NCBI GenBank assembly: GCA_951406725.2
Contig: OX597834.1
Span: 6,014,001 to 6,078,000, forward strand
DNA from: Octopus vulgaris
Taxonomy: Eukaryota
Direction of reading: 5' to 3'
Length of the DNA stretch: 64,000 nt
The first letter of the stretch is position 1. Each line of letters begins with the position of its first letter. A model generated the notes under the pieces. The model saw nothing but the letters and a program-made list of their open reading frames with translations, did not search any database and had not been told where the DNA came from. Positions 20,485 through 55,283 of the stretch are shown here, piece after piece. Made by a program: the position numbers and the translations under genes.

Positions 20485-20883
20485 AGTAAAGATTGTTTGA
20501 CAACATAACATGGCAGTCCTGGTTTAGGGCGAATGTTGCTGTAATTTAGCCCCAGGAGACATCGTCTCCAGCTGGCTATACAACACGATCTGTGTCCTTA
20601 TATTTTCGAAGAAGGGTATCAAGCACCCCCACTCAGCTCAAAATAATATCTGCGTATCATGATTTCTGGGTTATTTTCAGGTTATGAAGAGAAATGACCC
20701 AGAAATCATGGTACACAGATATTGTTTTGAGCTGAGTGGGGGTGCTAGATTCCCTTGTTCGAAATTATAAGGATACAGATCATGTCATATAACCAGCTGA
20801 AGACGATGTCTCCTGGGGCTAAATTACAGCAACATTCATCTTAAACCAGAACTGCCATGTTATGTTGGCAAACAATCTTTACT
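20485..20883. repeat. ~400-bp fold-back palindrome (~190-bp imperfect arms)
   Basis: agtaaagattgtttgacaacataacatggcag... versus ...ctgccatgttatgttggcaaacaatctttact; near-duplicate flanks tacattacagactga / tgcattatagactga. Confidence 0.85.
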
Positions 20884-29215: not shown

Positions 29216-29247
<32 letters not shown>

Positions 29248-29368
29248 AACAATAAAGGAACGGCCATAATAGGCCATTCACCCACTAGAAATAACAGCCA
29301 AAGCTTCAACCGCAAGTAAAAGTTAATTCAGTAAACCAGGAGAAAATTTAAAAAACATTTACCCTGTA

Positions 29369-29475
29369 ATTTCTTATACGATATACCGTTTCATCTGCTG
29401 ATTAATGGTAAACTAACCTGATTAAATTAAATCAAGCCTATCTTCCACAGGCCCTCAGATTCTTCAGTAAGAAAT
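29369..29475 (-). ncRNA. Type I hammerhead ribozyme, unit 1 (near-identical copies at 29862-29968, 30355-30461 and 30848-30954, all minus strand)
   Basis: Minus strand: atttctta-CTGAAGA-atctg-[58 nt]-cagat-GAAA-cggtatatcg-TA|taagaaat; 8-bp stem I, 5-bp stem II base, near-palindromic stem III, GUA cleavage triplet. Confidence 0.88.
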
Positions 29476-31445
29476 AGCCCAAGACGGAACAGATATTTTC
29501 ACGAGGCATTTCCGACGTTGCCAAGTTAATATCTGACCTAAAATTTTCAAATCGTCGCACTCGCGCCAAATTTATCGGCAGCAAATAAATATAAGCCGTC
29601 GATTCCATTACGGAATTAACCAGAAAATTCATAATTAATCAATATAGGGTGGCAAAAAAAAATTTTGTAGAATTCTTTTGCCACCAGCGGCCTAGTAGGA
29701 AAAATTAAAATAGTCATAGACCATTTTTAAGTTCAACATCAACAATAAAGGAACGGCCATAATAGGCCATTCACCCACTAGAAATAACAGCCAAAGCTTC
29801 AACCGCAAATAAAAGTTAATTCAGTAAACCAGGAGAAAATTTAAAAAACATTTACCCTGTAATTTCTTATACGATATACCGTTTCATCTGCTGATTAATG
29901 GTAAACTAACCTGATTAAATTAAATCAAGCCAATCTTCCACAGGCCCTCAGATTCTTCAGTAAGAAATAGCCCAAGACGGAACAGATATTTTCACGAGGC
30001 ATTTCCGACGTTGCCAAGTTAATATCTGACCTAAAATTTTCAAATCGTCGCACTCGCGCCAAATTTATCGGCAGCAAATAAATATAAGCCATCGATTCCA
30101 TTACGGAATTAACCAGAAAATTCATAATTAATCAATATAGGGTGGCAAAAAAAATTTTGTAGAATTCTTTTGCCACCAGCGGCCTAGTAGGAAAAAATTA
30201 AAATAGTCATAGACCATTTTTAAGTTCAACATCAACAATAAAGGAACGGCCATAATAGGCCATTCACCCACTAGAAATAACAGCCAAAGCTTCAACCGCA
30301 AATAAAAGTTAATTCAGTAAACCAGGAGAAAATTTAAAAAACATTTACCCTGTAATTTCTTATACGATATACCGTTTCATCTGCTGATTAATGGTAAACT
30401 AACCTGATTAAATTAAATCAAGCCAATCTTCCACAGGCCCTCAGATTCTTCAGTAAGAAATAGCCCAAGACGGAACAGATATTTTCACGAGGCATTTCCG
30501 ACGTTGCCAAGTTAATATCTGACCTAAAATTTTCAAATCGTCGCACTCGCGCCAAATTTATCGGCAGCAAATAAATATAAGCCGTCGATTCCATTACGGA
30601 ATTAACCAGAAAATTCATAATTAATCAATATAGGGTGGCAAAAAAAATTTTGTAGAATTCTTTTGCCACCAGCGGCCTAGTAGGAAAAAATTAAAATAGT
30701 CATAGACCATTTTTAAGTTCAACATCAACAATAAAGGAACGGCCATAATAGGCCATTCACCCACTAGAAATAACAGCCAAAGCTTCAACCGCAAATAAAA
30801 GTTAATTCAGTAAACCAGGAGAAAATTTAAAAAACATTTACCCTGTAATTTCTTATACGATATACCGTTTCATCTGCTGATTAATGGTAAACTAACCTGA
30901 TTAAATTAAATCAAGCCAATCTTCCACAGGCCCTCAGATTCTTCAGTAAGAAATAGCCCAAGACGGAACAGATATAGCCTGTGGAAGATTGGCTTGATTT
31001 AATTTAATCAGGTTAGTTTACCATTAATCAGCAGATGAAACGGTATATCGTATAAGAAATTACAGGGTAAATGTTTTTTAAATTTTCTCCTGGTTTACTG
31101 AATTAACTTTTATTTGCGGTTGAAGCTTTGGCTGTTATTTCTAGTGGGTGAATGGCCTATTATGGCCGTTCCTTTATTGTTGATGTTGAACTTAAAAATG
31201 GTCTATGACTATTTTAATTTTTTCCTACTAGGCCGCTGGTGGCAAAAGAATTCTACAAAATTTTTTTTGCCACCCTATATTGATTAATTATGAATTTTCT
31301 GGTTAATTCCGTAATGGAATCGACGGCTTATATTTATTTGCTGCCGATAAATTTGAGCGAGTGCGACGATTTGAAAATTTTAGGTCAGATATTAACTTGG
31401 CAACGTCAGAAATGCCTCGTGAAAATATCTGTTCCGTCTTGGGCT

Positions 31446-31552
31446 ATTTCTTACTGAAGAATCTGAGGGCCTGTGGAAGATTGGCTTGATTTAATTTAAT
31501 CAGGTTAGTTTACCATTAATCAGCAGATGAAACGGTATATCGTATAAGAAAT
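31446..31552 (+). ncRNA. Type I hammerhead ribozyme; predicted cleavage after 31544
   Basis: atttctta(31446-53) CTGAAGA(31454-60) atctg(31461-65) ... cagat(31524-28) GAAA(31529-32) cggtatatcg TA(31543-44) taagaaat(31545-52). Confidence 0.9.
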
Positions 31553-31939
31553 TACAGGGTAAATGTTTTTTAAATTTTCTCCTGGTTTACTGAATTAACT
31601 TTTATTTGCGGTTGAAGCTTTGGCTGTTATTTCTAGTGGGTGAATGGCCTATTATGGCCGTTCCTTTATTGTTGATGTTGAACTTAAAAATGGTCTATGA
31701 CTATTTTAATTTTTTCCTACTAGGCCGCTGGTGGCAAAAGAATTCTACAAAATTTTTTTTTGCCACCCTATATTGATTAATTATGAATTTTCTGGTTAAT
31801 TCCGTAATGGAATCGACGGCTTATATTTATTTGCTGCCGATAAATTTGGCGCGAGTGCGACGATTTGAAAATTTTAGGTCAGATATTAACTTGGCAACGT
31901 CGGAAATGCCTCGTGAAAATATCTGTTCCGTCTTGGGCT

Positions 31940-32046
31940 ATTTCTTACTGAAGAATCTGAGGGCCTGTGGAAGATTGGCTTGATTTAATTTAATCAGGTT
32001 AGTTTACCATTAATCAGCAGATGAAACGGTATATCGTATGAGAAAT
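31940..32046 (+). ncRNA. Type I hammerhead ribozyme; predicted cleavage after 32038
   Basis: Same fold; the stem I 3' arm tgagaaat turns one A-U pair into a G-U wobble. Confidence 0.88.
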
Positions 32047-32269
32047 TACAGGGTAAATGTTTTTAAATTTTCTCCTGGTTTACTGAATTAACTTTTATTT
32101 GCGGTTGAAGCTTTGGCTGTTATTTCTAGTGGGTGAATGGCCTATTATGGCCGTTCCTTTATTGTTGATGTTGAACTTAAAAATGGTCTATGACTATTTT
32201 AATTTTTTTCCTACTAGGCCGCTGGTGGCAAAAGAATTCTACAAAATTTTTTTTGGCACCCTATATTGA

Positions 32270-32312
<43 letters not shown>

Positions 32313-32993
32313 TCATATACATATATATATATATACCATGAGGTGAAGTGTTGAATTTATCTTTGTATAGTCTGATGAGCTGTCCACAAGGCTGCGGCTT
32401 TCATGGATGCAAGACCATTGGTCACTCTCTGGCCAGACTTTAACTTTTCTGCTCTGTTCCTTGCTGTGTGCTTCTAATTCAGACATATGATATTCCTTTT
32501 TTTTTCTTTTATTTGTTTCAGTCATTTGATAGCAGCCATGCTGGAGCACTGCCTTTAGTCGAACACATTGACCCCAAGACTTATTCTTTGTAAGCCTAGT
32601 ACTTATTCTATCAGTCTCTTTTGCCGAACCGCTAAGTGACGGAGACGTAAACACACCATCATCGGTTGTCAAGCAATGCTAGAGGGACAAACACAGACAC
32701 ACAAACATATACACACACATACAAATATATATATATATATACATATATACGACAGGCTTCTTTCAGTTTCCATCAACCAAATCCACTCACAAGGCTTTGG
32801 TCGGCCTGAGGCTATAGCAGAAGACACTTTCCTATGATGCCACGCAGTGGGACTGAACCCAGAACCATGTGGTTGGTAAGCAAGCTACTTACAACACAGC
32901 CACTCCTGGGAATGTAAACACACCAACATCAGTTGTCAAATGACAACATTGACAAACATAGACAAACATGGACATATAAACATGTATCTATCC

Positions 32994-37427: not shown

Positions 37428-40400
37428 CTACAGGATCATGCTCAAAATGGTTTCGTTACTAGCACGCACCATCTTTGCAACATTCACCCATCTTTTTTTG
37501 AATCTTTCGCGAGACAAAACTTCCCTCTCCATTCTCACCTTCCTTTTCAAGTGGTACTTGAAAAAGTTGATGAGCGATTGGCCAGAGAGGTAAGTGTTTG
37601 TCTCTAATCCTTTCGCTCGAGTCCACCACACACATTCTTTCACCATGGCCACCAGTACGATGAAAACTGCCTTGCCTTCCCGGTTGAGGGAAGGGGGCGG
37701 AGCAATTCTCACGATAGACTCGGCCGATAGGCGGATTCGTCCCACACGTGACAGCAGCCGTTCGGCATAAGCCCACAGGTCGGAAATGGTTGGACATTGC
37801 ACGAGTGCGTGCAGAACGGTTTCGTCGCTCTGACCGCATCTCGGGCAAGTCGGTCCAGTGTGTCTGGAACCGTGTCTGTAGAGCTTATCCCGAACAGGTA
37901 ATGCTTCTCGATAGCACTGCCAGGCCAGGGATCTTTGATGATTGTTCATAGGTCCCGGCCCGAAAGTTGTCCTGAACAGGCGGGTCAGGTGTTCCTCGTC
38001 GACGCCCAGACTCTGCCCGAGTTCGTCGTCGCGCCTCCCCTCCACTAATCCTCTATAGAATGCCTTTGTTGTGATGGAGTCGCACAAGTTCGATCCCGGA
38101 CGGCAGAGTTGCTTGAGAGCAACGCGACACTCGCGGTGCCATTCGCCTAGCCTCGGTCTCTGCTTGATCCATGACTGTAGTTCGTCCAAGGAGACGAGCT
38201 GCGGGAAAGCGCGCCGCACAAAGGCGACCACCCCTGTTCACCGTTGTCTATGAAGCGCCGGAGATGTCGCAGTCTCAGCGCATGTCTGCGCATCATCAAC
38301 CACGGCATGCCCAGCCCTCCATTTAGCGGGTGTTGGCAGCAAATGGATCGCCTAACCATCGGAACGTTTCCCTTCCACAAGAAGCGGAAGAGTATGCGTT
38401 CCAGTTTGGTGATGGTAGGGTCGGGACAAGGCACGACGGTCAGACGATACTCGATGACGGATGCGATGTACGCGTTCGCCACCTCCGCCCGACCTTTTAG
38501 GGATAGCTTTCTCTCAGTCCATTTCTGGGTGAGAGTAGCCACCCTAGTCGTTATCTCGCCCCAGTTCTTCTCCATTTGGAGGTCCGGACCGAACCAGACC
38601 CCGAGCAATTTAACCGGTCCGTCCGTCCAGCGTCCCACGATGGAGACGCTGTTGGACGGCATGGGCTTGCTTCTCCAGGTGCCGAGCCGCAAGCCCACTG
38701 ACTTTTCCCGGTTAATTTTTGCTCCCGTTACCGCTTCGTATTCTTTCAGTGTCTCGCCGACCAGCTCGATGTGCTCGTAGCTCGACACTATGACGGTGAC
38801 GTCATCCGCGTATGCAGACACGCTCCTCCCGCATCCCAGCTCTCGTGGGATGCCCCTCAGCGTCGCCAGTTTCCGCAGTAGTGGCTCAAGAGTCAGTACA
38901 TACAGCAGCGATGAGAGGGGGCATCCCTGACGAACCGAACGCATGATGTTAAAAGGTCTGGATAGATGACCATTTACGCGAACTACTGAGCGGATGCCGC
39001 TGTATAAGGCAGCGATCCAACCGCGGAAAACTGGACCGAAACCAGCCGCTTTGAGGACAGCCTCCAAGTAGTGATGGTCTACCCTATCGAAGGCTTTTGA
39101 TTGATCCAAATTGATCAGCGCCCCACCCATGCCAGGATTTTTAACTACCCTGTCTATGATGTAGCGCATCAGGTGGAGGTTGTCATGAATACTTCTACCC
39201 GGCACGGCGCATGTTTGCGCCTTGTCGATTAGTTTCTTGATGACAAGCGCCAACCTCTCGGCTAACACCTTGGCCAAAATTTTCAAATCTGCGTTGAGCA
39301 GAGTGATGGGCCTGAAATTATCTATGACGTCCCCCTTGTTTGGGTCTTTCTTGATCAGTGCCACTGCTCCTCGCTTTACAAAAGCAGGAATACTCCCGTT
39401 CTGCTGCCAGTTGCAGTAGACAGCTGCCAAGACGCCTCCAAACAAGTCTGGCATATGAAAATAAAATTCGTAGGGCAGACCATCCAAGCCTGGTGACTTG
39501 TCTCTCGCGCAGCCTACCATCGCATCCTGTACGTCCGCAGCTGTGATAGGCTTTTCACAAGACTCCACCTCCCTTGCTGAGAGTCGTGGCAAGGCATGCA
39601 GGTAGGCACTAAAGTCCACTCTGCTTTCTGACTCACCACTTGTCCCAAACAGTTGGGTGAAGTGTTGTTGAAAAACCCCACACATCCTTTTAGGCTCGAG
39701 CAATTCGCGCCCCTGTTCATCTATAAGAGACTTGATGGTGGCTCTGTTGCCTCGTTGCGTCTCCACCACTCGGGCCTCTTGGGCGGCTCCAACTCCTTCG
39801 TTCCTCAGAGCACGCATCCTAGCTCTGACAACGCATCCCTCGTGTTTGGCGTTGAGGTGTTGGTCGAGGGCCAATCTCGCCGCCAGTACGTTGGACGCGA
39901 TGCCAGTTCTAAGTGCCTCTTCTAAAACCTTAACTAAATCTCCCTCTATTCTATTTCGGTCTAATGCTAGGGCTCTACTGTATCTGACTGATTCTGCTTT
40001 AATCGCTTTTTTAGGGCATACCACCATCTGTTGTTGATGATGGTACCCGTCAAAGCTCTCTTAACTAATGTGCTGATCCGGTCCCTGTAAACCTGTCGTG
40101 CTGTAAAAGACGCGTTCAGTTTCCAGTAACCAGGACCCTGCCTATGTGTCTTATCTAAGTCAAGTGTACAAGTCACAAACTTGTGATCTGTGTAACTGAC
40201 TATATGAAATTGTGGACAACCTACACTATTTTTATCTATTGTCCTACAGAATACTCTATCTAAGTATGATCTGGACGACCCGATGCGGTTACTCCATGTC
40301 CACATTGGCACATTCGGGTGGTCCAGTCGGTACCTGTCAGACAGTTGGAAACGTCTGAGCAGGTCTTTGAGGCATTTGCATCCCCTTCTATTGCTATCTC

Positions 40401-40864
40401 TGCCCACGTAGTCTAGATGCGTGTCCAGGGTGGCATTCCAATCCCCCACTAAAAGTAAAGGACGAGACGTTCCCATGAAAGACTCTAGACGTCGAAAGAA
40501 ATCTGGTCGGCCTGTTAAGGACGGAGCATAAACTGCTATCAGTCGAAAAGCACACTCATTGCTGCCATCGACATCTAAAACGACCAGCCTACCCTCCGGG
40601 TCTAGGAAATTTAGCTCTTACTTTGAGATCCAGACTCTTCCGGATAAGCACCGCGGTGCCACCTCCGCCCATTCTCGGTAGACACGGAGAAAAATAAATG
40701 TTGAAATGTGTACCGAAAATGTGCTGGAGTGCCCGCAAGCTGTGGAGTCTGGTCTCACTGATGGCTATGATATTCAGATTTAGTGACTTGATGTCATTTA
40801 ACAGGTAGCCTTGTTTCCAAGGCGACCCCAAGCCACGTACATTTATACTACCTATTCTGAGCAT
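37428..40864 (-). CDS. LINE ORF2: AP-like endonuclease + reverse transcriptase + C-terminal CCHC (zf-RVT); about 3 frameshifts (~40600, ~40020, ~38235)
   Basis: MLRIGSINVRGL, ISETRL, VGDWN, SRSYLDR, YTDH (APE); KSPGLDGL, FRPITLLN, KAFDRV, QGCPLS, YADD (RT); CPRCGQSDETVLHALVQC; pieces 40589..40882, 39967..40476, 38147..40027, 37428..38231. Confidence 0.9.
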
Positions 40865-43069
40865 GTTCCGATAAAAGTGCAAAAAAGGAAAAGGAGAGAG
40901 AAAAGGTTACTTGTTTTTTCGAAAGTTCTTTGTCTTTCACCTCACGGTCTTCTTCTATGAGGCTTTTATACAGTTTTTTCGATGAGTACTTTTGAAATCT
41001 CCCTACTGCATCAGGGTAAAGAGATTTCAGGGTGTTGTATGTGTTCTGTGTCACGTGTATTATTTTAATGTGTTGTGGTGGTGTTGTGTGTGGGTGGTTA
41101 CTTGTTTTTATGTCGTTTTCAGTAATGTTAGTGTTTGACCTAATGTGTTCCATTAGGTCGTGGTTGTTTGTGTTAATGGCTGTCAACATTTTTGGGGGGT
41201 TTGATGATGGTGTGTTTGTGCTGATGTGTGTGTTTCTGTGGATGTTTTTGTTTCGGGAGTGGTGTATCTTCCCGCTTTGTTTGTTATTTTTTCTTTTCTT
41301 TTTTTCCCCTTTTTCTTCTCCCCCTGTGGCTATTTGCCAATCTTCCGTGTCTTCTTCGTCTAATGACAGATCGGACGAATCGGAGTCTGGAAGAGGGAAA
41401 GTATTGGGGTCTATTGTCGACTGTGTTGGTTTTGTTGTTGGTGTTGGTTGGTGAGCGTTTGGTTGTGGTGTATGCAGTTTTGGATGTGGGGTTTGGGTAT
41501 TTTGTGTTTGAGTGATTGTGGGTATTGTTGTGTTGTTTAGGGTCTCAATTTTGTGGGGATTTGGAGTTGTAATTGTTTCTTCATTTTTGCTGGGTGTCTT
41601 TTTGGCAGATGTCCTTGGTTTGGGAGTTGGTATATTCTTGGTTGTTGTTGTTGTTGGTGATGCTGCTTCTGTTCTTGGTGCTGCAGTTGGTGTGGTTGTT
41701 TGTTTGGTGAGGTTTGTTCCTGCAAAAAGTGGTGTGGGTAGTAAACCTTGTTTATTTGTTTTTGTTTCCGGCTGCTGTTGTTGTTGCTGTTGTTTTCTTG
41801 CGGCAGATTTGCAGTCTTTTTTGAGATGTTGCTCACTGCCGCATATGTAGCAACGTGGTCTTCTGCCATCGACGACCACATATAACTTGTGGTCGTCTGA
41901 TACACATATCTGGGTGGGTATTTTTTTTATATCTTCATGATGTATATGTAGAAGAAATTCTATTTTTTTCCCACCCAGTTTTTATGCTCTGTGACTGTGG
42001 TTTCCAAAATAGTATAATTCGCCATTTTTATGCATAAGGCCTTTACAAGCCATAGACTATTGGCTATTTTGGGGACATTGTTTAGAGTGATCTTAGTCAC
42101 TTTCTGTCCCCGATAGCTTGGTGTAAGTTGGAGTTCATCTGAGTGAAGAGTTAGCGTTGAGAAATGTCTAGCTAACTCTTCGGTGTAGAAAACAACTTGT
42201 ATGTGGGCAAATTTGTTCCACCAGGTTACATATTCTTTGTGATCCCAGATGGGTTTCAAGCACTTCTCTATTTTGCTTGTGTTGGCCTTCTCTGGGATTT
42301 TTGTTTTTTTGTTAACTATTTTATAAATGATTGTTCGTCTTTTTTCATTTTCCAAAATATCTTCTGGTATGTTTATTTTTACTATACCTTCTGATTCTGT
42401 TATTTTGATGTTCGTGTCCTGTATTTGTTGAGCCGTGAAGTATATTGTTGTTTTTTTTTCTTTAATCGCCTCAGCGAAATTTGTTGTTGTTTTGTTATTG
42501 TTGTTGCTTGTGGTGATGTTGTTGTTGGCTGCCGTTTGTAAAATTGGTGTGTTTGGTTCGATCGTGCAAGTAGGAAGGGGTGGGAAATTGCCTGCGTACT
42601 TTAGTCCTGCACTAGGGCAAATTTCGACATTTCGTTTGCTTGTCGTCGTTATTTTTTCACTTGTTGGTGATGGAGTGAGCAGTGGTTGAAGGGAATTGTT
42701 GTTGTCGTCGTTGTTGTTGTTGTTGTTGTTGTTATTGTCGTTCTTGGTGACGGCGGTGGTGTTGGTAGTATTAGTAGCATTGACGGCACGGTCTTTGGTG
42801 GCGGTGATGGTGATGTTGGTGTTGTTGTTGGTGGCGATATCTTTAGTAGGGATAGCAGTTTTAGTAGCAGATTCTGCCATGGTGTTGGTGGTGGTGGTGG
42901 ACTCACTGATGGTGTTGACGGTGCTTGGCCTTGCGACCTTTGTTTTGTATTTGTTGCTGTTGATGGTGGTGGAGTTGTCAGGTTCGGCGTATGCTAACAG
43001 AGCATCCTGTTTTTCTGTTTGTGCGTCACGCTTGACTTGCAACTCAGCCTCGTGGTGGCCAGTGGCCAT
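40848..43069 (-). CDS. LINE ORF1 (gag-like nucleic-acid chaperone), frameshifted near 41960-41880
   Basis: ATG at 43069 (MATGHHEAE), Thr/Asn-rich N-terminus, CYICGSEQHLKKDC zinc knuckle; overlaps the ORF2 start by 17 nt. Confidence 0.8.
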
Positions 43070-53218: not shown

Positions 53219-53381
53219 GGAGTAAACACATATATGTGAAACAAGGTGGAAAAAAGAGTATTCAAATACCAGTACTCAAATATTTAAAAGCAGCAGAATT
53301 CTAGCAAAAACTGTCCGACGAATGGGAACGTGAAACTCAGAGTAACAGGTTTTGTTGAATTTTCTGCCGCTTTTAAATAAA

Positions 53382-53383: not shown

Positions 53384-53430
<47 letters not shown>

Positions 53431-53436
<6 letters not shown>

Positions 53437-54010
53437 TCAATAATAATATAGGGTGAAATTAATTAATTTGGAATAAATTCCAAATTAATTAATTTCACCC
53501 TATATTATTATTGATAATTATATTTCATCCCAGTAAAAAACCGTAGCATCTTATTTTGGCAGCACGCTGGCGGAAGGGGAATGGTGACATACTTTCATTC
53601 ACCCTTTGAATTTGGTGGTACTGGTAATGGCTTACGCTCGCTCTGATACCATGAGTTGAGGTGATGTCTTCTAGTGCCTTCAAATTTAATACACAATTAT
53701 TAATAATTGAGACGCAATTATTTATAATTGAAGAGTCCTACGCTGAAGAGGAAAATAGTTGGGTAAGACATAATTATTTAATTTTTATGCTTTCCTATGA
53801 CTTAATTCCGAAACGTACGTCCGTAGGTGACTTAATATAGAATGATTGTCGTCATTTCTTTCTCCTTTGCCTGTGTTGTTTGCCTTTTAAGTGCTGTGGT
53901 TTTACTGGGATCTCCCTTTTAAGTAGAAAGAATAGCCAAAACTCTTTGACTGCTATTTCTAAATTCGGTGTGTGGTGAGGCAAATCGTTGCTAAACCCTT
54001 AATTACTTAG
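53431..54010 (+). mobile_element. Second retrozyme-like element (~580 bp) with a fold-back 5' end, between (TA)n tracts
   Basis: 43-bp perfect inverted arms 53431-53520; contains a canonical hammerhead; shares caccctatatt and ctttg(a/g)ctg(c/t)tatttcta with the 493-bp unit. Confidence 0.7.
53734..53832 (+). ncRNA. Type I hammerhead ribozyme; predicted cleavage after 53821
   Basis: agt-cctacg-CTGAAGA(53743-49)-ggaa-[52 nt]-ttcc-GAAA(53810-13)-cgtacg-TC|cgtagg-tg-act. Confidence 0.9.
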
Positions 54011-55020
54011 TATATATATATATATATGTGTGTGTAAATATATGTATATAATAATTATATGTGCTTATATGTGTAGAATATGTGAAGAGAGACAGGGGAA
54101 ATAGCATAATGTATACAATGTCAATTAAATCTCCTAATACATTGTCTTCTGTTCTAATATTTTTTTTTATAAAGACAAACATTGACAATATACCTCAACA
54201 CTACTCCACCCCACCATCACTACTTTAACCCTTTCGCATTTAAACTAGCCATACTCTGCCCAAGGAGGCGCATTGGCCCAGTGGTTAGGACAGCAGACTC
54301 GCGGTTGTAGGATCGCGGTTTCGATTCCCAGACCGGGCGTTGTGAGTGTTTATTGAGTGAAAACACCTAAAAGCTCCACAATGCTCCGGCAGGGGATGGT
54401 GGTGATCCCTGCTGTACTCTTTCACCACAACTTTCTCTCACTCTTACTTCCTGTTTCTGTTGTACCTGTATTTCAAAGGGCCGGCCTTGTCACTCTCTGT
54501 GTCATGCTGAATATCCCCGAGAACTACGTTAAGAGTACACGTGTCTGTGGAATGCTCAGCCACTTACACGTTAATTTCACGAGCAGGCTGTTCCATTGAT
54601 CGGATCAACCGGAACCCTCGTCGTCATAACCGACGGAGTGCTCCCATCCACTCTGCCCAAATATTCTATCTGCTTTATGTTCAAACAGGCCAGATCCAGC
54701 CTCTCACACCCACCCTACACTGTTATTCTAAAAATAAGCAATCACATCTTCATCATCATTTTGAATCTACAAGATAATACATGATTAATCTTTAAAAATT
54801 TGGATAAACTACATGTGGGGTAACGGTTAGGGTTTCTGGCTTTCACCTAGGCACCCTGTGTTCAATTCTCAGCTCAGGAACATTTTTATGTTTTGTAGTA
54901 TTTTCACTAGGTTGTGATGCAGCATGGCCACAGTCTAATGGCTGAAACAAGTAAAAGATAAAAGATGAAATAAGCATTAATAAATCTCTGAACGAGGTAT
55001 AAACAGTAACTGCACGACAA

Positions 55021-55283
55021 TGTGAAGTATATTTGCCATCTCAATATGGCTAACCACTAAGGGTGGTAGCCCCAGGAGAACATCTCCTCCAGCTGGCTTT
55101 AGGCACACTTTCTGTGCCCTTAAGGTATTTGCGTATCACTTAGGTTGACGAGGGAAGGATGACCTCCCTTTGAAAATACCTTAAGGGCACAGAAAGTGTG
55201 CTTAAAGCCAGCTGGAGGAGATGTTCTCCTGGGGCTACCACCCTTAGTGGTTAGCCATATTGAGATGGCAAATATACCTCACA
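55021..55283. repeat. Fold-back palindrome (~110-bp near-perfect arms) within an insert bounded by a 12-bp TSD aaataagcatta
   Basis: tgtgaagtatatttgccatctc...aaggtattt versus aaatacctt...gagatggcaaatatacctcaca; TSD at ~54968-54979 and 55285-55296. Confidence 0.85.

Follow-up and report, generated by a model that had tools for sequence, protein, structure and literature searches.

A recent two-armed insertion of a non-coding hammerhead retrozyme in the Octopus vulgaris genome, probably copied from one circular RNA by a Penelope-like enzyme

The non-LTR retrozymes of metazoans described by Cervera and de la Pena (2020, PMC7229834) are non-coding tandem units that carry one type I hammerhead ribozyme each, have a GC content below 50% and no LTR, PBS or PPT, and occur as dispersed multimers in genomes where Penelope-like elements co-exist. 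Their units measure 220-245 bp in coral, 350-390 bp in mussel and 330/350 bp in axolotl. A ring and its expression were shown for them, and the conversion of this ring into tandem cDNA by a Penelope enzyme was proposed, not shown. The vertebrate retrozymes of a recent preprint (Li, Clavereau and Pollet 2026, bioRxiv 10.64898/2026.07.22.740005) span 51-972 bp, form arrays of few units and are likewise linked to Penelope elements; they display homology to pLTRs, and local amplification at the DNA level was suggested. Among Penelope-like elements, the protein of the anole element Poseidon PAc, predicted to be a dimer, nicks and extends both DNA strands from two internal RNA start sites, with a tail at one end (Frangieh 2024, PMC11167929). 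Furthermore, such elements show an inverted 5'-truncated copy, a bias towards (TA)n and non-autonomous head-to-tail members (Craig 2021, PMC8557442).

The element reported here lies in a window of 64,000 nucleotides of the Octopus vulgaris genome (assembly GCA_951406725.2, contig OX597834.1, positions 6,014,001 to 6,078,000). It is probably a recent insertion of a non-coding hammerhead retrozyme, likely made by a Penelope-like RT/GIY-YIG enzyme that copied one circular monomer RNA from both DNA ends. Two inverted arrays are found between (TA)n runs, with units of 492-494 bp, a spread due to variable homopolymer runs. The left arm (29245-30975, minus strand, 3.5 units) was detected by TRF with a period of 493 and 99% matches, and the right arm, of opposite orientation (30977-32274, plus strand, 2.6 units), with a period of 492 and 98% matches; a single extra base (30976) separates their inner ends. 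We numbered the unit from the first base 3' of the predicted ribozyme cut (phase 1, window position 31545), taking as reference the full cut-to-cut monomer at 31545-32038 (plus strand), which is 494 nt long here and is the predicted circle. The left arm thus has its inner end at phase 375 and its RNA-sense 3' end (29245) at phase 132, named site A, while the right arm has its inner end at phase 419 and its RNA-sense 3' end (32274) at phase 237, named site B. The target microsatellites flank the arms at 29222-29246, where AT overlaps the arm end, and at 32273-32335. The GC content of the unit is 0.33-0.35. No ORF of at least 90 aa, measured from stop to stop, overlaps any part of the array, and the unit is therefore no autonomous Penelope element, which would have an ORF with RT and GIY-YIG. 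An earlier note on this DNA, made from the sequence alone, had reported the 493-bp period, the near-identical units and the lack of a credible protein, all of which are borne out here; it had overlooked the two diverging arms and their outer ends, fixed at A and B in (TA)n, a build that carries mechanistic information. Elsewhere in the window, a broken LINE-type retrotransposon lies on the minus strand (37428-41981), its RT frame (38147-40060; Pfam RVT_1, E 4.5e-32) being flanked by frames that resemble endonuclease and ORF1, and MITE-like long near-perfect inverted repeats are seen at about 55040-55280 and at 20614-20754.

A descriptor scan of the interval retrieved exactly six complete type I hammerheads, at the places where the earlier note had put them. 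Four are consecutive on the minus strand, at 29369-29475 (with one substitution in the stem II insert), 29862-29968, 30355-30461 and 30848-30954, with cuts predicted after 29377, 29870, 30363 and 30856, respectively; two are on the plus strand, at 31446-31552 and 31940-32046 (with one G-U pair in stem I), with cuts predicted after 31544 and 32038. A seventh, read directly from the sequence, is present as its 3' half only (30977-31060, plus strand), the right arm beginning within the stem II insert. Each complete hammerhead is composed of an 8-bp stem I, the CUGAAGA core, a 5-bp proximal stem II enclosing a 58-nt insert, GAAA, a GUA site and a near-palindromic stem III, which is self-complementary in the copy at 31446-31552. 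Such a motif arose in none of 5000 first-order-Markov random units, and any motif with a stem I of at least 5 bp in 4 of 5000; folding z-scores were -3.6 for the hammerhead region and -4.8 for the monomer. The Rfam hammerhead search gave no match at E<=1 across the window, nor at E<=10 in 31400-31600, as had been anticipated for standard descriptors, and the long stem II is the likely cause.

Across the family, the only common core variant is at N7, a free position, in 17 of 98 loci. In 14 loci of an older subfamily (84-95% identity, same B end), none of the 11 invariant core sites varies; N7 is found with all four bases, H17 changes from A to C and one stem II pair from G-C to A-U. In addition, the centre of the stem III palindrome changes from AU to GC in one event, which keeps the self-complementarity required by a dimeric hammerhead, and dimeric cleavage through a palindromic stem III has been described (PMC4209133). 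The stronger conservation of the core relative to the rest of the unit, the lack of which the earlier note had named as a ground for refutation, is not significant when varying sites are counted (5/41 in core and stems versus 82/453 elsewhere, P=0.24). Altogether, the sequence data support a functional-looking hammerhead for which cleavage is predicted; against the reading that we favour, we count the report that 8 of 9 retrozyme dimers failed to cleave (bioRxiv 10.64898/2026.07.22.740005). The fetched flanks contain at least 15 more distinct motifs resembling type I hammerheads, many with a stem II of 26-61 nt, and hammerheads beyond the reach of Rfam seem abundant in the octopus genome. One hammerhead-like motif of the window (53307-53355), with a CCGACGA core and a 4-bp stem I, lies in a short piece between two (TA)n runs, and similar ones occur in L103 and L281.

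The copy-number check gave 792 exact copies of the 32-base hammerhead stretch genome-wide (2.8 Gb, 227 contigs; control 0), and 176 exact A ends in (TA)n. A DNA search returned at least 257 matches, from 39 of 723 candidates, with 97-100% identity among the 150 matches listed. The copies are dispersed over many contigs, with a GC content below 50% and no LTR structure, and the unit is present in sequencing runs from three organisms. These results support the view that the array is one recent copy of a young family of non-LTR retrozymes that a Penelope-like enzyme likely mobilises, as first proposed from the sequence. Plant LTR retrozymes, defined by type III hammerheads in LTRs, PBS/PPT and a 4-bp TSD, do not correspond to its type I topology and tandem units. 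The octopus family shares with the metazoan non-LTR retrozymes of PMC7229834 the traits listed above, and differs from them by a longer unit with the 58-nt stem II insert, by two diverging arms whose ends are fixed at A and B within (TA)n, a build not described in the accessible text of that paper, and in being known from its genomic footprints. That 493 nt is long for an animal retrozyme is true with respect to the 170-400 nt of PMC7229834, but the unit falls inside the 51-972 bp of the vertebrate preprint.

The 118 loci mapped here comprise 38 from the DNA search, among them the window copy, 32 from an internal-motif list and 48 from an A-end list; L060 was removed as a duplicate of L061, with the same flanks, and no further flank duplicates were of concern. 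The arms diverge from the centre, with their RNA-sense 3' ends facing the flanks, and the outer ends are fixed, site A at phase 132 in 101 arms and site B at phases 235-240 in 87 arms, about 108 nt apart. Sites A and B are paired in 86 of the 118 loci, including 21 of the internal-motif set (versus 1 A/A) and 32 of the A-end set (versus 0 A/A). The only A/A pair, L218, is complex and ambiguous, and B/B pairs number 0; in 24 loci, a second arm is either missing or too short for mapping, 6-7 have a non-standard end and 1 is degraded. The window copy, with A at 29245 and B at 32274, is typical. In an internal unit (plus strand), each putative priming site follows a hairpin, at 31643-31676 for site A and at 31729-31784 for site B, and the tail is the stretch between them. 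(TA)n directly abuts both ends in 92 of 118 loci and one or both ends in 116, and it leaves any target-site duplication unreadable as it stands on both sides. At the central junction of 72 simple loci, the arms mostly overlap by 1-7 bases.

The fixed outer ends rule out priming at random points of a ring, and end-to-end twin priming that splits one linear RNA is ruled out because the inner ends are not at the other start site. LINE-1 twin priming also uses two primers from one target site, and its 5' inversion is joined by microhomology; the octopus element shows no poly(A) priming, its arms overlap by whole units and both starts are fixed and internal. The two-armed A/B build is the Penelope 'tail' footprint: the inverted 5'-truncated copy, the one-sided tail and the microsatellite target are those of a non-autonomous element mobilised by Penelope. 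Relative to the Penelope-like elements of PMC11167929 and PMC8557442, the octopus unit is without ORF, its tail is about 108 nt long instead of 30-40 nt and its arms contain up to 9 identical units, and here the near-strict A+B pairing and the single-haplotype arms have been counted.

We propose that such a locus would form as follows. The array would be transcribed and its hammerhead would cut the RNA to 493-nt monomers, a step whose trace is visible in the genome, and a host ligase would close the monomer, as suggested by published retrozymes. Both strands of a (TA)n target would be cut by a Penelope-like RT/GIY-YIG enzyme. As the fixed ends and their A+B pairing suggest, an enzyme dimer would sit on one ring at the internal sites A and B, about 108 nt apart, each start site being primed by one cut DNA end through AT microhomology. 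Both copies would then circle the ring, giving two multimeric arms with the one haplotype that is observed, until synthesis would stop, either randomly or on meeting a gap in the RNA at the ribozyme site, the latter in ~11% of passes to judge from the excess of inner ends. Finally, the two cDNA ends would be joined head to head by short microhomology, consistent with the overlaps, and the second strands filled in. The strictest form of this proposal, that each insertion is the fossil of one closed ring copied by both halves of a Penelope dimer and rolling until the hammerhead reopens the ring, has in our judgement about an even chance of being right.

The inner ends give information on the template. 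Of 204, 39 fall at phases 1-30, where a length-jitter null that keeps arm lengths predicts 13.7 and 0 of 5000 simulations reach 39. Per pass, the stop rate amounts to 0.108 in this stretch, versus 0.015-0.061 elsewhere. This excess, the strongest, starts at phase 1 and is restricted to the 3' side of the predicted cut. The first 38 loci alone place 11 of 72 inner ends at the cut site (scan-corrected P=0.38), and the signal is clear only in the 118 loci. Moreover, 7 of 86 loci have both arms ending jointly at phases 1-30 (odds ratio 6.6, P=0.005), and the lengths of the two arms are weakly correlated (rho 0.26, P=0.02). The excess and the joint stops indicate that templates were sometimes open at the predicted cut. 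Such stops are absent from the PAc data in the accessible text of PMC11167929. When synthesis passed over the cut site, 318 of 321 passes were exact, with three substitutions and no indels, as expected of a ligated ring or of an uncut multimer.

All RNA-labelled data consist of contigs, in which start, end, strand and level are unreadable, and sequencing runs sharing next to no words with the unit were left out. In run X2, whose RNA label is guessed, the unit forms a single 523-nt contig (493+30) that is a closed loop in the graph; it has one haplotype and carries a variant absent from the 404 genomic units sampled. This loop fits a ring and a tandem transcript alike. No enrichment of the unit was seen in the three RNA-labelled contig sets X10, X13 and X17: measured against a neighbouring high-copy repeat, it is some 10-fold less frequent there than in the DNA run X8, a rough comparison based on contig depths, with guessed RNA labels and library types not on record. 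Poly(A) selection would miss rings, and junction reads cannot discriminate a ring because the junction is also genomic concatemer sequence. Of the earlier claim that a young family makes a 493-nt circular RNA, the youth stands, and the circle is not reflected in these three sets.

The variants within loci point to a single template. In 81 of 84 loci, both arms carry the same bases at 12 common polymorphic sites, versus 38% (maximum 49%) upon permutation; the three discordant loci are L064, L239 and L199, the last at two sites, joining two haplotypes. Of the rare variants that lie outside homopolymers, 32 occur in every unit that covers the site, 11 are partial, 157 are found in a single unit and 34 are uninformative. 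A variant arises in one unit, and yet it can be fixed across up to 8 units and both arms, from which we infer that one monomer was copied repeatedly. In L199 and L268, two haplotypes are joined or the innermost unit differs, suggesting occasional template switching. The single-unit variants of the 118 loci show, in RNA sense, 36 G>A versus 12 C>T in arms of both orientations; by context this bias is not significant (P=0.06 at CpG, 0.16 elsewhere), and the G>A excess may stem from errors of the RT or from deamination of cDNA. A-to-I editing fixed into copies, a candidate in the first 38 loci (P=0.008), is unsupported in the 118 loci (5/32 versus 9/157, P=0.065; A>G 5 versus T>C 4).

It is possible but unlikely that the same enzyme used a linear, mostly uncut multimer transcribed from a homogeneous array, or two RNAs of the same haplotype, so that no ring would be necessary. 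The exact junctions and the cut-site ends fit partly cut multimers too, no ring was seen in the RNA-labelled contig sets, L199 indicates that two templates can contribute, and uncut RNA is the main in vitro substrate of the anole Penelope protein (PMC11167929), which we count against a ring. However, a new variant on a linear multimer would pass to one unit only, yet the 32 rare and 12 common variants are fixed array-wide while 157 are single, and some step must therefore copy one monomer many times. Likewise, the inner ends are not enriched at the start site of the other arm (stop rates 0.040 and 0.019), an excess that end-to-end twin priming along a single linear RNA would produce.

A bottleneck of one monomer, with stops at the cut site, would also follow from a cut linear monomer whose two ends are paired by stem I and held shut, the enzyme jumping from the 5' end to the 3' end to make multimers. 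We find this quite improbable, as template jumps usually add or lose bases whereas no indel occurs in the 321 junction passes, and as the 3' end would bear a cyclic phosphate.

The DNA-level route put forward for vertebrate retrozymes (bioRxiv 10.64898/2026.07.22.740005) would here mean that a Penelope terminal fragment inserted once per locus and then grew as a satellite, by unequal crossover or DNA circles. The 11 partial variants, some of them periodic (L065, L034), could mean local duplication, but single-unit variants exceed them 157 to 11, whereas homogenisation of DNA would leave many partials and does not easily cross the inversion. The arrays are short and dispersed, both inverted arms are multimeric with one haplotype, and a DNA process would not explain why inner ends gather at an RNA cleavage site; growth at the DNA level is thus highly improbable, and the variant pattern argues for multimerisation at the RNA level, in contrast to the vertebrate case. 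As to the partial variants themselves, one of L065 is present in 5 of 8 units, and those of L065 (2 of every 3 units), L034, L039 and L032 are roughly periodic along the arm, which could be due to multimeric ring templates, local duplication or assembly error. Finally, that the hammerhead is a non-cutting passenger and the excess at phases 1-30 a product of RNA structure or microhomology is barely credible: a second, weaker excess at phases 205-230, near a hairpin and a T run (stop rate 0.061), the non-significant core conservation taken alone and the recurrent junctions at phases 5 and 22, which suggest a choice by microhomology, speak for it, but the strongest excess begins at phase 1, 3' of the predicted cut only, and variation is limited to tolerated positions in two subfamilies.

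A candidate type of enzyme exists in this genome. An intact 781-aa ORF, present in many copies, combines an RT (E 1e-6, just under Pfam's cut-off) with a C-terminal GIY-YIG domain (E 4e-7). All 16 fetched loci have the full ORF and end in (TA)n, with two ends 40 nt apart (A and A+40); the divergent pairs are two A+B and one A/A. This element has no nucleotide homology to the 493 unit, and its tail is 40 nt, not 108 nt. It looks like a young autonomous Penelope-like family (L124-L139, for example), made of the 781-aa ORF, which contains a CxxxCxxC linker, a long frame upstream of it, a ~500-bp pLTR and the 40-nt tail; near its 3' end lies a hammerhead-like motif whose core is UUGAUAA. The GIY-YIG search scored 150 of 6136 candidates; by blastn, no pLTR homology to the unit was found in 44 GIY-YIG-bearing loci, in contrast to the pLTR homology of the vertebrate retrozymes, and neither a motif census nor inspection by eye revealed ends shared with the unit in further GIY-YIG or divergent Penelope loci.

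A motif upstream of site A (31618-31635, plus strand) is common to other repeat families of the genome and is likely a recognition element of the enzyme. Its pattern, of which the end part matches other families and not the 493-unit family, has 3842 genome matches (control 0) in several non-coding families. Loci L164-L193 represent a clan of families with this motif, several with hammerheads of 59-76-nt stem II and one with a CCGAUGA core. The window itself contains a second retrozyme-like family at 53430-54013, with a 600-bp unit, a short inverted B arm and an A arm in (TA)n, and a type I hammerhead (53737-53827) with a 60-nt stem II; its genome copies are ~92-99% identical, among 1980 candidates. 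In this family the ends are 110 nt apart, and all 6 two-ended loci among 30 loci are A+B.

Retrozymes are a known class, and the mechanism proposed here appears well constrained by the genomic evidence. In the literature that we covered on cephalopod and octopus retrozymes, hammerheads and Penelope twin priming, with Repbase, Dfam and subscription journals outside its scope, the accessible texts describe neither the 493-nt family nor A+B paired arms. As far as this coverage extends, such footprints are new for a retrozyme, and so are the tail of 108 nt, the near-strict pairing of A with B, the single-haplotype arms and the cut-site stops. The origin of Penelope tandem and inverted structures, and the role of their hammerheads, have been named as open (PMC8557442), and this family gives countable footprints for each step, namely paired fixed starts, a single template for each insertion, and a cut site that is either passed without a scar or marked by stops. 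The unit also offers a small substrate with mapped start sites for an in vitro Penelope assay. Since Rfam does not see hammerheads with long inserts in stem II, the number of families of this kind is probably underestimated. If our reading is true, the genome would record both that retrozymes transpose through a circular template and that their ribozyme cleaves in the germ line, across a clan of families with one recognition motif.
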